This document shows, one piece after another, positions 12,469 to 19,261 of a stretch of 64,000 bases of DNA. This stretch comes from Tubulanus polymorphus (taxonomy: Eukaryota > Animalia > Nemertea): the NCBI RefSeq assembly GCF_964204645.1, contig NC_134026.1, positions 22,416,150 through 22,480,149 of the forward strand. Reading direction: 5' to 3'. Each line of letters starts with the position of its first letter. Position 1 is the first letter of the stretch. The position numbers were made by a program, and so were the translations under genes. The notes under the pieces were generated by a model that saw only the letters and a list, made by a program, of their open reading frames with translations, did no database searches and was not told the DNA's origin.

Positions 12469-15400
12469 ATGGCGTCTTCCAATGAACCACACGTGAAAAT
12501 AAAGCAAAATGCGAACATAAACTGGAAACCAGTCACTTTTAAATCAGATGGAGATTTTGATGGCCTCGCCAGTATAACAGTATTGGAAGATTATGAAATC
12601 ATCGGTGGTAAAATAGTTCCTAAGTCACGGCAGGAGCAGAATGTAAGAAATGGTATTGAATTGACTTGAATTTATTGATACCTGTTTTCAGTTTAATAGG
12701 GTTGCACTTTTTAATTAGATATCGAAGATTTTAGGGGCTCACATCCTCGATTGTCGGGGTTTAATTTATCTTACACCAACACATACCCTGGTTGCATTTC
12801 CTTTGTTGGTCTTCTAATCATTACATCTTGGCGGATATAGTCTGAACTGAACCAGATGATGTACGGGTTCCCTACTACTTGTTAGAGAACAACAGATAGG
12901 TACTAGACTAGGGCAGACAGTTTGCCCTTTGGTCTGTATATCTAGCCAATCAGATACATTTTTTTGGTAGAACATCTGAATACATAGGCCTAAACTGTCC
13001 GCCGAAGAAATCTTGGAAGTCAGTGTTATGGCATAGTGAAGGAACTGCGGCTGCAAGGTCTGTGTTGGCATGAATTTTGACTGGAGGCAATCAAACCCTG
13101 GCAAGGATAGGGCCCATCACATATGGCTGCCATCCTGAGCTCTGCTCCATTATCCTTGAATTTTGTGTACTTCTTACGCTAATATAAGAATTTGTTTTAG
13201 AAATCTTCGGCGTACCCTTCTCTGAGTGCCAAAACCAAAAGTGAGAAAACGAAAACAAAAAAGTTCAAGAAACTTGTTGGAAAGCAAGAGAAAATTGACA
13301 CTGTAGAGAAAAAGAATGAAACAAAAAATAAAAAACCAGATAAAATAGACAATTCTTCACCAGTTGTAATGGAAGAAACCATTTGTGAACCACATAATAC
13401 TTCTCCAAAAACTAGTGAAGGGGCTAAACCTGAAAGTCGCAAACAAAGAAAGACCCGACTTTACAAAGAAAAGATGACAGCCAATAAAAAACAAAAAAAG
13501 GAACGATTAGCTGCTAATAGGGCTGAAGATAAAGCAAGAAAAGATCAAGAAGCCAACGAAAAAACTAATGCATCTGTGAAAAAACTGAAAGAGCAAACTC
13601 CAAATTCCAAAAAAAGAAAATGTAAGTCAATTAAATTAGATTCAATAGACAAAATTTTAGTTGTCTTACAATTTCAAAGTTCACTCATGATTTCATCTAT
13701 GCAGCCAAAAATGAAAATAAGAAATCAGAAAGCAAAAAGATTAAGTTGACTTGTAATGATGATGAAAAACAAGATAGTGATGATAATGAAGATGATGGTG
13801 ATGATCGCAATTTCAAGGATGATGATGACGATGATAATGATTCGAAAGATACTTTTGATGTGGAGAAAATAAAAAACGGTGAGCTATGTATGATTGTGAT
13901 TGGAATTGACAAGAGATAACATCTTTGAGCATAAATTTGACGTATAAATTTCTGATTGATTTTTCTCATAGAAATGACAGCTTGGAAAGATTTATTTGTC
14001 CCTGATCCAGTACTAGCAGCATTGTTTGATAAGGGTTTCACTTCGCCAACACCTATACAAGCCCTAACACTACCTTCTGCTATTCGAGATCGAAAGGATA
14101 TCATTGGAGCGGCAGAAACAGTAAGTCGTGAAAACGTTAGACTCATTTCAGAAATATCTGTGATACTTTTTGATTAGTTATGATTTTAATGGGGCTTAGT
14201 CTATGGGAATAATGCCCTAATTGGTTATTTTATCTATGGCTAATGTTTTATGGCTTTTTCAATAATTTAGTAATTCAGTCTAGCCTTCATTTTATTTAGT
14301 GTCTGAACTTCATAATTGCGTTTTTTAGGGCAGCGGAAAAACACTGGCTTTTGGAATCCCTTTACTAAACAATATCCTATTGAAAAAGATGCAAGCAAAT
14401 CGTTCAAATTCAGAAGAAAGCGATGATAATGAGGATGACAATGATGGAAATGATGCTATTTCTGCGGCAGATGATGAAGGTTTGGAAAAAGATGACATCA
14501 CGGAACAACTGGATGATAATGAATATGAAGATGAGGAGTCTGATGGTGCAGACGAAAGCAACGATGTAGATAATGAAATGGAAGGGGATGAGGTAAGATG
14601 CTAACAAAAGAGCGTTTTGGAATGATGATGATGAAGTGCCAGGGTAAGATGCTAACAAAAGAGCGTTTTGGAATGATGATGATGAAGTGCCAGGGTGCTA
14701 TATTTTATAGATGATCTCTCACAGGATTACACTCGATTCATTTGCAAGGTAATAAATCTGTCATCAGTGATTTTGCAATTTAAGGATGAAGATGAAAGTC
14801 TGGATGGTGAAGGTGATAATTCCGATGTTGGAAGTAATCTAAGTTTCAGCGGTGAAGATGAATGGGATGAATCAGAGCTGAGTGTACCGGTGGAAAAACT
14901 ATTCAATTCTGTAAATGATATTGCACTGTCTAAAGACAGTGTAGACGACGTTCATGAACAGAAACCCGTTATTTCTGAAATGAATCAACGACTTTACTGT
15001 CTTATATTGACCCCTACTCGGGAATTGGCTGTCCAAGTGAAAAATCACCTGGAAGCTGCTGCCAAATATACTGGAATAAAGGTGATTTCGCAATTTATTT
15101 TAGAGTATCAAATTTTCATAGTTATATCCATCGGCAACAAGTGTAACTTTCTGAATGTTCTAGGTAGCTGTTATACTTGGTGGAATGGCTCCTCAAAAAC
15201 AGTTGCGCATTTTGAAACGTCGTCCTGAGATTGTCGTCGCCACACCAGGTAGATTATGGGAACTGATTCAAGAGGTTTGTATTCGATGACGTTCCATCTC
15301 ATTGGAACCAAATTCAGTTTTGAAGTTGACCCAAATGCATAGCTATTCATTCAACAAATACCATGATGTCACGGTAATACAATACCACGATCAAAAATAT

Positions 15401-17432
15401 TTTCTTGTATCTTTTAGGAGGAACCTCATTTGTCTCAAGGTGTAAAAAACCTACCTTTCCTAGTCATTGATGAAGCTGACCGAATGGTTGAAAAGGGACA
15501 TTTTGAAGAATTGTCGAATTTGTTAGAATTGATTAATGAGTGAGTATGATTACAGTAATGATTACAGTATTATTGTTTTTCAATTCCTTATCTGTATAAC
15601 ATTATTTATTGTTCTACTTGCAGAGATGAGAAATTGCGTTTGAAAAGGCAGAATTTGATATTCTCTGCAACTTTGACATTCGTACATAAGGCACCAAACT
15701 GGTTGTCGTATAAAAAGAAGAAAAAGCGTCAAAAACCAGTCGACTACACTTCCAGTGATAAACTAGGTTTGCGCCTGACATTGTAGCAACAAGGAAGGCA
15801 AAAACTTCAACTTAATTACTGTGATTTTATGTTTTTCAGATTCGCTGATAATGAAAATCGGTATACGTGAAAAACCAAAGATCGTCGATTTGACACGGAA
15901 AATGGGAACTGTAGAAACGTTGACCGAAACGAAAATCAACTGCCGAAGGGAAGACAAGGATATCTATTTGTATTATTTCTTGTTGTTGTACCCTGGTCGG
16001 ACACTGGTGTTTGTGAACAGTAAAGATTGTTTACGACGACTGATCTCGATTTTGACTCTGTTGAAATGTAACCCTTTGCCATTGCACGCTGATATGCACC
16101 AGAAACAGAGATTGAAGAATTTGGATAAATTTACAGGTATTTTATTTAGAGCCGGAGATATTTGGATTTTCAACTTTGTCGGTGATCATGTTTTCAGGAT
16201 GAAATTTTGTCTTATTTTATTTGCAGCTAATCCTAAAGCTCTGTTGCTAGCTACCGATGTGGCCGCTCGCGGATTAGATATCCCAGATGTCCAACACGTT
16301 ATTCATTATCAAGTACCAAAAACGACTGAGGTATTATTTCAACCGGTACCCACCCTCTGAAAAAGTGGCCTTCTTATATGGCATCACTCATTACTAGTTC
16401 AAGGCAAAATGTCATCATAGGACTTATGGGGTTGCCATAATTTCTGAAAGTCTTGTTGATAGTATTTTCTATTTCCTATCAGAACTATGTTCATCGAAGT
16501 GGACGGACGGCTAGGGCTACAAAAGAAGGTCTCAGTGTAATGTTGGTCAGCCCGTCTGATATTCGAGACTACAGAAAAATTGTAAAAGCTTTAAACAAAG
16601 GTTAGTAATGTACATGGCTTGTTGAATGATTTGTAGATTGAATGAGTACCGTGAGGCTACATTTGATCAATATGATATATACAATGTGTTATTTAGATGA
16701 AGAACTGCCTACGTTCCCAGTACAAGAGGAATACCTTCCCTGTGTCAAAGAGAGAGTGGCAGTTACCATTCAAATAGATAAATCAGAACATGGGTAAATA
16801 TCGGATTTGATGATGTTGAGAAAAATTTGCGACGAGCGTTTCAAGTATATCATCTATTAGTTAAACAATCTTTTTTAACAGTTTTTCAAAAAGAAAACAT
16901 GAAAATGATTGGTTTATGAAGGCAGCCAAAGAAGCTGATCTAGACCTTGATGAAGAATTGTATCCTTTCTAATGTCAATATTTGACAAGTTATAACGAGT
17001 AATTGTGGCGATCATGTCTTTTATGAAACTTAACTCAAAAACTCAGAATTTATGATCTTGGGGATGATGTCGAGAAAAGTGATTTACAAAACAAATTGAA
17101 GGGATTGAAAATGGAATTGAGTATTTTGCTGCGTCAACCAGTTGCGTTGAGAGGATATTCTGGAAAGTATCCAACAAAATCTGGAAAGTTACAATCAATT
17201 TATATGGCTGGTAAGTATTATTGGTCATTCTTTTTCAATCCAAATTTCTATAAAGCTTTTCTGTATTTGTCTTTTGCTTTTTCATTTTTCAGATAAGGTG
17301 ACCGATGCCCTGAAAACAGCTAAGCAGGAAAAAGATATTCTGAAAAGACTTCAAACTAAGTCATCGAACAATTTGAAAAAACGGCGCCGAAAAAAGAAAA
17401 AAGTGCAAACTGTTTCAAACAGTGATGAATAA
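12469..17432 (+). CDS. DDX24: ATP-dependent DEAD-box RNA helicase DDX24/Mak5
   Basis: Exons: 12469-12642, 13201-13621, 13705-13878, 13972-14120, 14329-14592, 14785-15081, 15164-15274, 15418-15539, 15624-15766, 15840-16136, 16227-16330, 16483-16600, 16697-16793, 16882-16959, 17047-17210, 17293-17432. Motifs: [31 protein letters not shown] (VIDEADRM), SAT, ARGLDIP and [11 protein letters not shown]24 hallmarks include AWKDLFVP, an acidic insert between motifs I and Ia, [14 protein letters not shown] and KYPTKSG. Confidence 0.93.
14593..14694 (+). repeat. Perfect 51-bp tandem duplication at a DDX24 intron 5' end
   Basis: The unit gtaagatgctaacaaaagagcgttttggaatgatgatgatgaagtgccagg occurs at 14593-14643 and 14644-14694. 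Confidence 0.9.
16960..17046 (+). other. U12-type GT-AG intron in DDX24
   Basis: The 5' splice site is GTATCCTTT. A branch-like CTTAAC lies 12 nt before the intron's 3' end, and the acceptor is A-rich (tcaaaaactcag) with no pyrimidine tract. Splicing gives the in-frame LDEEL-IYDLG. Confidence 0.8.
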
Positions 17433-17927
17433 AATTGTTGTGGTTTTAAATCAGTTTTGTAATTTTGTAGTCCTTTCATAGAAGATAACAGGATTGTCCT
17501 AGGTTCGAACCAGCTTCTGATACCACCGATTCTGATTCTAAAGAGAATAAAAAGTCCTGGTCTCCATGTTATTGTTATAAGATATTGTCTGGATCCATCG
17601 AGGGGTTTAAACCAAACACTACACTGGGTTTAACTCGCACATCTTTGGCTTGTTCCCAGGAACCTGTAACAACGACTGGTATTCGGACTCTCTTGGCCCT
17701 TACGACATACAGAACTAGAACGATCATTCTTTCACAGAAATTCCACCACCATTAGATCCGGACTGGTATAGGAGTTTCAACGTTTAATCTTTTGTGTGAA
17801 ATATTGTAACCTTTGCATGCCAATAATTGGTTAGAGTGAAATAACCCCTTAGTGTCACTAGCACTGGCATGCGAGTGTTTCAACCATTCTCCCCCGGGAT
17901 GTGCTGCCACCGTTTAAAAACTTCAAA

Positions 17928-19261
17928 ATGGCTGGTATCCGAGGTAATGTTTACCGCACTAAAACACTTTAAACTATCCATTCGTTGCTGCAATGAGAAC
18001 AAATAGCTTCAGATACCAAATGTTTTAATGAAATTAGACCCTTCACTGACCTGTGAATAGGCACCGAAATAAATTCAGCCAGCTAGGCTTTTTTGGGGAC
18101 AGTTATTAATAGTACTAACTACCAGATTTGCATACTGAATAAAATAAAAACGAACCGACCTTTTTTGTTATCTAAACTCAAGTAACACTAATTCTTTGCT
18201 AATATTTTCCCTTTCATGCGAACCTTGATTGAGATTGATTTTTGACGCATCTCATTTACAGCGTAAGTAGATATATTCTCTGAACTGTCGGTTTTTATTT
18301 TTAGTTTGTGACTGGTTGTTGTGATACATTTTGATTTTAATTAAAGAATGATTTAAAAAACCTTTAAAATTTTACTTTCAGTTTGGTCGCCTTGGCATTT
18401 TCAGCAGCAATCGGCATTACACTACTCGTGTTAGGATGTGCTCTACCACAATATCAGTGAGTCTTTCAATCATGATACAGGCCGAAATTATCCTTACGTC
18501 ATACGATTAGAATGATAATATTTTGCTGTATTTTGGATAAAAGACTTTACCGCCAATTGTATTTTTGTAACAGAAATTGGTGGCCGATGTTTGTTATATT
18601 GTTTTACGCACTGGCGCCGATACCGACGATGGTATCAAAGCGGTTTTCAGCCGACAGTGGAAGTAGTGCGTTGATAGAAGCTATGCTGTTCCTAACGGCA
18701 GGAATAGTTGTGTCAGCTTACGGTTTACCTGTGGTTTTAGCTCACACACCTCTCGTCAAACCCGTGGTAAGATCAAATGAATTATGGCCATCTTTGAAAA
18801 TCATCGGAATTTATGTAAGATCTAAATCAATTGACTTCTCAAATTCTTCCGACTCGGGATTAGCATCATAGATTAGCATCAATTTCAGGCACAATGTTAC
18901 CTTACATATAAAACCATTTCAAATTATTCAACAGTAGATAAATCCAGCTGAAATTTAACACATTGAAGTTGTTATACACTGTATATACTGTATAGATTTT
19001 TGGGGCTATCCATAAAGAAGGTGTGGGTGTGTGGAATAAACAATTTTTGCTAATAGAGATCATACCTTAAATATATTCAGGCGTTTTAGATGTAGGGCAA
19101 AATGATATTCCGGGAAAACTGATTGTAGGTATTGTTTGTTGTTTCAGATTCAATGGGGAGCATGCGCACTTGTAATGGCCGGTAATACTGTTGTATTTCT
19201 AACTATATTAGGATACTTTTGGACATTCGCGGAAGATGATTTTGACTACAGCATGTGGTGA
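17928..19261 (+). CDS. LEPROT: Leptin receptor gene-related protein / endospanin (VPS55 family; LEPROT/LEPROTL1 co-orthologue)
   Basis: Exons: 17928-17943, 18262 (1 nt), 18382-18456, 18574-18766, 19148-19261. Translation: [48 protein letters not shown]...FLTAGIVVSAYGLPVVLAH...IQWGACALVMAGNTVVFLTILGYFWTFAEDDFDYSMW, collinear with vertebrate LEPROT/LEPROTL1. A candidate AATAAA lies at ~20874. Confidence 0.93.
18262..18262 (+). other. Predicted single-nucleotide exon (C) of LEPROT/VPS55
   Basis: The context is tttgacgcatctcatttacag-C-gtaagtag. G (end of exon 1) + C + T (start of next exon) gives GCT, the conserved Ala6. Direct joining of 17943 to 18382 is out of frame. Confidence 0.8.

Follow-up and report, generated by a model that had tools for sequence, protein, structure and literature searches.

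Can a single nucleotide serve as an exon in an animal nuclear gene? The question arises at a LEPROT/Vps55 gene of the ribbon worm (nemertean) Tubulanus polymorphus, where the phase-1 end of coding exon 1 does not fit the phase-2 start of exon 3 and joining them directly leaves the reading frame one base short. A sequence-only reading of the window (the whole 64-kb stretch of DNA that we analysed) had proposed that a lone C between these exons is itself an exon and that one codon is therefore split over three exons. The exon phases around Ala6 bear out the split codon, and the one-base exon is backed by the phase mismatch, by the splice signals, and, at the DNA level, by related loci. The coordinates all held when we rechecked them against the letters of the window. 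From these data, we consider it very probable that the spliceosome treats the C at 18262 as a true constitutive exon of one base, which provides codon 6 (Ala) with its middle base.

Table 1. Features of the LEPROT/Vps55 gene, in positions of the window
Feature	Position	Strand	Description
Coding exon 1	17928..17943	+	16 nt, Met1 to Arg5 plus base 1 of codon 6; phase-1 donor gtaatg
Intron 1	17944..18261	+	318 nt, GT-AG; acceptor ttacag, moderate
Single-nucleotide exon C (very probable)	18262..18262	+	Middle base of Ala6; ttacag-C-gtaagt
Intron 2	18263..18381	+	119 nt; consensus donor gtaagt, acceptor tttcag
10-nt pseudo-exon of NCBI protein P0001	18305..18314	+	Strong acceptor but weak donor (gttgtt); discarded as the main route
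Coding exon 3	18382..18456	+	75 nt; phase 2 at both ends; encodes the first transmembrane stretch
Coding exon 4	18574..18766	+	193 nt
Coding exon 5	19148..19261	+	114 nt, ends in TGA

The gene consists of five exons on the plus strand, from the ATG at 17928 to the TGA in exon 5 (Table 1). With the C included, the coding sequence is 399 nt long and encodes a small membrane-trafficking protein of 132 amino acids. Membership in the LEPROT/Vps55 family follows from the Pfam profile Vps55 (PF04133), of which positions 1 to 120 are covered in order by exon 3 (1 to 23), exon 4 (24 to 91), and exon 5 (90 to 120). Exons 4 and 5 each pass the Pfam cutoff of 24.6 alone, and exon 3 falls below it at 22.8. 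Exon 4 is 100% identical to the NCBI protein named "leptin receptor gene-related protein-like" from T. polymorphus. We also joined upstream ATGs to exon 3 in phase 2 and obtained no family-like N terminus. Farther upstream on the plus strand, at about 13200 to 17755, there is a DEAD-box helicase gene (Helicase_C match), which we take to be DDX24-like from its motifs. Its end appears to be about 170 nt upstream of the LEPROT ATG, a tight space for a 3' UTR and a promoter. At about 14600 to 14700, a short stretch is present in two tandem copies that are visible in the open reading frame translations.

Inclusion of the C restores the frame and makes codon 6 Ala, as in most homologues. When the C is omitted, the frame shifts and translation stops after 22 amino acids; the base is required for both the frame and the conserved residue Ala6. 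It stands alone between an AG and a GT and is flanked by introns of normal size (318 and 119 nt). We scored splice sites with matrices derived from related loci (27 independent donors and acceptors) and found that the donor after the C is the best of the 17 GT sites in the gap (score, 7.7). The motif YAGNGTRAGT is not rare by itself, with 2 matches in the 64-kb window and 1.26 expected. For the 438-nt gap that needs one base, about 0.8% of shuffles contain it. Enumeration of the frame-keeping GT/GC-AG routes gave 9 with a single intron and 16 with two introns. On a family profile of 25 homologues, the one-base route scored 213.4 bits, the route of the NCBI model scored 204.1, and a direct route to the acceptor at 18404 scored 191.8. 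Each of the six alternative routes that we scored on this profile fell below the one-base route.

To look at relatives, we scanned metagenome DNA with a degenerate pattern, checked on the window, that describes exon 3 directly preceded by a phase-2 acceptor; the pattern selects phase-2 acceptors only. It gave 88 matches, and removal of 6 that were not Vps55 by inspection (L010, L024, L044, L046, L057, and L070) left 82. With the window included, 22 of 83 rows were duplicates, and 61 loci remained. Their best matches were clitellates and other annelids, bivalves, insects, mites, a cladoceran, and further groups; many of the loci are closely related, and by best match they amount to about ten lineages. 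The 16-nt exon 1 is likewise present in related loci. The signal that we accepted was AG-N-(GT[AG]AGT or GCAAGT), a filter that passes only near-consensus donors. We found it in the gap of all 28 animal-like loci with a phase-1 exon 1 in range (the window and 27 others), with 8 of the 28 resting on the GC donor and one AAG acceptor that we admitted after inspecting the data. The expectation for these 28 loci, from 300 dinucleotide shuffles per locus with the window included, was 0.67.

The base was C and the codon Ala in 21 of the 28 loci, including the window (20 with gtaagt and 1 with gtgagt); two of the 21 also have a second site with a different base. It was G, with a gcaagt GC donor and a Gly codon, in 7 loci that we provisionally call rotifer-like (L001, L030, L031, L049, L059, L066, and L082, and duplicates). 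These read tag-G-gcaagt and have AT-rich introns of 44 to 64 nt and an exon 1 that is three codons longer. Where animal loci had no exon 1 in range, 19 of 28 held exactly one site, always with C, and the motif was absent from the remaining 9, all of which have less than 1 kb upstream. Four animal-like loci without a close named protein (L025, L048, L051, and L068) form a group with a 13-nt exon 1 and keep the C exon. A TGA lies about 6 to 20 nt before the one-base exon in 28 of 40 loci, a count made without a control, and may mark a close branch point. In the window, the A at 18245 (TGAC match) is a candidate branch point of intron 1. Viral contigs gave zero matches with the same scan pattern.

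Three fungus-like loci, which are nearer to fungal than to animal proteins (106 to 130 versus 80 to 87 bits), all have ccag-C-gtacgg at the matching place, about 100 nt from both neighbours, with Thr as the codon. Thr at this codon also occurs in the commonest form among the ascomycete proteins that we compared. The phase-2 intron stands alone in two loci, L027 (animal-like) and L075 (ascomycete). The earlier proposal that the structure is conserved, which came with the suggestion to look for AG-N-GT in VPS55 orthologues, agrees with these counts: 27 of 27 other animal-like and 3 of 3 fungus-like loci carry the signal at the same codon. The layout is not an oddity of one species, since it is found in annelid-, mollusc-, insect-, mite-, cladoceran-, rotifer-, and fungus-like loci.

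The gap in the window can be read in other ways. NCBI protein P0001 bridges the two phases with the 10-nt exon in Table 1 and thereby adds three residues. It has the standing of a database model, and its acceptor at 18304 is the strongest in the region (9.2 versus 6.3 at 18261). Its donor, however, scores 1.7 compared with 7.7 for the donor after the C, and the route is 9 bits lower on the family profile. The three inserted residues are absent from the 25 aligned homologues, Ala6 is removed, and all 27 other loci hold the one-base signal. We consider this model very unlikely to be correct. Its acceptor is in intron 2, 77 nt before the real acceptor, and could be used in a minor isoform. The in-frame AG at 18403-18404, to which the sequence-only reading had also pointed, does exist, and splicing exon 1 directly to it keeps an open frame that encodes a 124-amino-acid protein; the acceptor score is 5.5. 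Such a protein would lack 8 residues from the first hydrophobic stretch, which is conserved, and the route lies 21.6 bits lower on the profile and leaves both the conserved phase-2 acceptor and the one-base signal unexplained. This makes direct splicing extremely improbable. It could also be argued that the assembly has lost a C at the start of exon 3 and that the motif is there by chance, as it is expected 1.26 times per 64 kb. The phase mismatch and the motif nevertheless recur in all 27 of the other loci, which come from separate assemblies. Because the mismatch recurs in many separate assemblies, an assembly error is ruled out as the general cause, and we give it a negligible chance at this locus.

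Indirect hints from RNA for the one-base exon came from proteins called on intronless contigs, which we read as translations. Spliced forms with a canonical start match odd database models downstream of the start: P0025 matches Mytilus at 115 to 120 of 122 residues, P0142 matches Pomacea at 123 of 127, and P0161 matches Haemaphysalis at 128 of 128. The oyster proteins P0006 and P0007 are identical at 122 of 122 residues from Leu7 and are two forms of one gene, and the tick proteins P0161, P0164, and P0162 are three forms of one gene. Across the oyster (P0006 and P0007) and tick (P0164, P0162, and P0161) sets, we found forms with intron 1 kept, with intron 2 kept, or spliced. Intron 2 is retained in P0007, P0135, and P0162. 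P0027 opens with residues encoded by the last part of intron 1 and the C, which run directly into exon 3. Compared with the genomic loci L047 and L026, P0027 agrees at 5 of 6 of these opening residues and 22 of 22 residues of exon 3, and this was the sole such match among 40 loci. These translations imply that relatives have partly spliced RNA in which the C has been joined to exon 3.

The two introns are expected to be removed in turn, likely by two ordinary splicing steps, since one base cannot hold both splice-site complexes at once. Sequential removal around tiny exons is established reasoning, as presented in PMC10250204. We think that removal of the downstream intron first is probably the main order. 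This order fits the strong donor after the C, the pyrimidine-poor acceptors of intron 1, and the intermediates that keep intron 1. The donor after the C is near-perfect, and the exon 1 donors vary, with 15 different hexamers in 21 loci. The pyrimidine content of the acceptors was 0.54 for intron 1 and 0.64 for intron 2 (n = 21; P = 0.02). A profile of strong donor and weaker acceptor, together with downstream-first removal, is described for short human microexons (PMC10250204) and for plant microexons (PMC8831610). According to this model, the gtaagt donor would pair with the acceptor at 18381, and the C would be fused to exon 3 to make a 76-nt exon; intron 1 would then be removed at 18261. 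Molecules that skip the C, with their stop after 22 amino acids, would likely be sent to decay.

Forms that retain intron 2 also exist, so that downstream-first removal is no more than probable. They may be taken to suggest that intron 1 is removed first and that the junction thus formed then serves as a donor, in the manner of a recursive splice site displaced by one base; the exon would still be real in that case. The AG-N-GT layout does resemble a ratchet point. The intron 2-retaining forms P0007, P0135, and P0162 do not, however, prove that intron 1 was removed, and there are also forms in which intron 1 is kept and intron 2 has been removed after the C. The acceptor of intron 1 is, moreover, the weaker one. 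We regard removal of intron 1 first as possible but doubtful. The sequence-only reading had inferred sequential or recursive-like splicing; the recursive-like kind is not needed, and the intermediates and acceptor strengths lean toward removal of the downstream intron first.

The one-base exon had also been predicted to escape gene predictors, and the database models agree with this. As noted, the NCBI model at this locus uses a 10-nt exon. We grouped named entries by hand, including isoforms and repeat entries, and found a canonical N terminus in 0 of 59 lophotrochozoan, 1 of 15 chelicerate, 4 of 5 decapod, and 20 of 22 fish models. The lophotrochozoan count is zero because the models examined miss the one-base exon. 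One mite model is among the canonical ones. Given the canonical decapod and mite models, the one-base exon would be either not universal or sometimes annotated. Two snail and two horseshoe crab models (P0039, P0146, P0028, and P0035) are full length with Gly6, which may reflect a real exon base G or an aligner that took the first G of the intron for the missing base.

Residue 6 reveals the phase, because a phase-1 acceptor followed by C allows only Ala, Ser, Thr, or Pro. We found one of these four residues in 18 of 18 noncanonical vertebrate-type models. In contrast, 23 of 48 lophotrochozoan models had another residue, mostly Arg from read-through of the AG (Fisher P = 1e-4 for 23 of 48 versus 0 of 18). 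Vertebrates therefore likely have only the phase-1 intron, in agreement with the human gene. Unnamed vertebrate-type proteins carry the N-terminal starts that the sequence-only reading had given for human LEPROT and LEPROTL1.

The distribution of the loci suggests a history for this structure. Two adjacent introns appear to be older than the split between animals and fungi, and it is likely that lineages lost one or the other, with vertebrates likely keeping only the phase-1 intron. The upstream intron appears to have been lost in the lineages of L027 (animal-like) and L075 (ascomycete). The locus is well suited to studying how introns at neighbouring sites are gained and lost. With introns down to about 45 to 65 nt, it also offers a natural compact substrate for work on the animal spliceosome, the lower limit of exon size, and the order of intron removal.

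A one-base exon in plant VPS55, which the sequence-only reading had mentioned, is in print (PMC8831610). That report describes RNA-seq and RT-PCR proof for it, its absence from all annotations, and its presence back to bryophytes, and notes that the Arabidopsis VPS55 annotation is missing 13 residues. The 1-nt VPS55 microexon is also reported in Zygnema (PMC11096116). The plant exon (cluster 2 of Yu et al. 2022; PMC8831610) resembles the ribbon worm exon in being a 1-nt internal coding exon near the N terminus in the same family, in its GTRAGT donor, and in having been missed by annotations. The ribbon worm gene shares with cluster 2 a VPS55 host, a length of 1 nt, an N-terminal position, and a GTRAGT donor. 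In plants, unlike here, where we saw none, a second form without the exon is reported to be kept as a paralogue or by intron retention (PMC8831610). No plant sequence was recognised among the matches of the profile search, the fungal query, or the Atlas. We lean slightly toward candidate homology, in which the codon 6 exon is the plant VPS55 microexon and two introns one base apart have persisted from before animals, fungi, and plants diverged. If this is true, the smallest possible exon would be among the oldest conserved exon structures. It would have persisted although its own base varies (C or G) and its donor has changed from GT to GC, and it would be hidden in most invertebrate annotations. 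Its slow two-step removal may then provide an inherent control on how much LEPROT is made.

In the mostly open-access literature searched, no one-base exon was reported for LEPROT or any animal nuclear gene; besides plant VPS55, the nuclear cases that came up were APC11 and Fusarium CYP621A. The placozoan mitochondrial cox1 gene has a one-base exon in an animal (PMC7813641). Unlike the LEPROT exon, it belongs to mitochondrial genomes with group I and group II introns and is neither nuclear nor spliceosomal. The neural microexons of the SRRM4/eMIC program resemble the LEPROT exon in their strong donor, weaker acceptor, and mostly downstream-first intron removal. As described, however, they are at least 3 nt long, mostly frame keeping, and tissue regulated (PMC10250204 and PMC13149111). 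We rejected assignment of the LEPROT exon to the SRRM4 type, which calls for a frame-keeping length and optional inclusion: the exon is 1 nt long, shifts the frame, and appears obligatory, and skipping it leads to the stop after 22 amino acids. We also rejected a recursive (ratchet) splice site, which has zero bases between AG and GT and leaves no base behind, whereas here one base must stay for the frame.

Arabidopsis APC11 has a constitutive 1-nt exon that is needed for the frame; an earlier annotation of it used 10 intronic bases instead, much like the NCBI model of LEPROT here (PMC4674806). It differs in gene and kingdom and in its proof by cDNA and mutagenesis, as reported in the same source, whereas the LEPROT exon is read from sequence. 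In CYP621A of Fusarium, comparison of orthologues showed that a mismatch between phase 1 and phase 2 is likewise bridged by one base, the middle one of a conserved codon (PMC12940212). That exon is described from one fungal genus with SRA read support, whereas the LEPROT exon is found in several animal phyla and in a fungus-like group. The LEPROT exon would add animal nuclear genes to plants and Fusarium as places where one-base spliceosomal exons occur.
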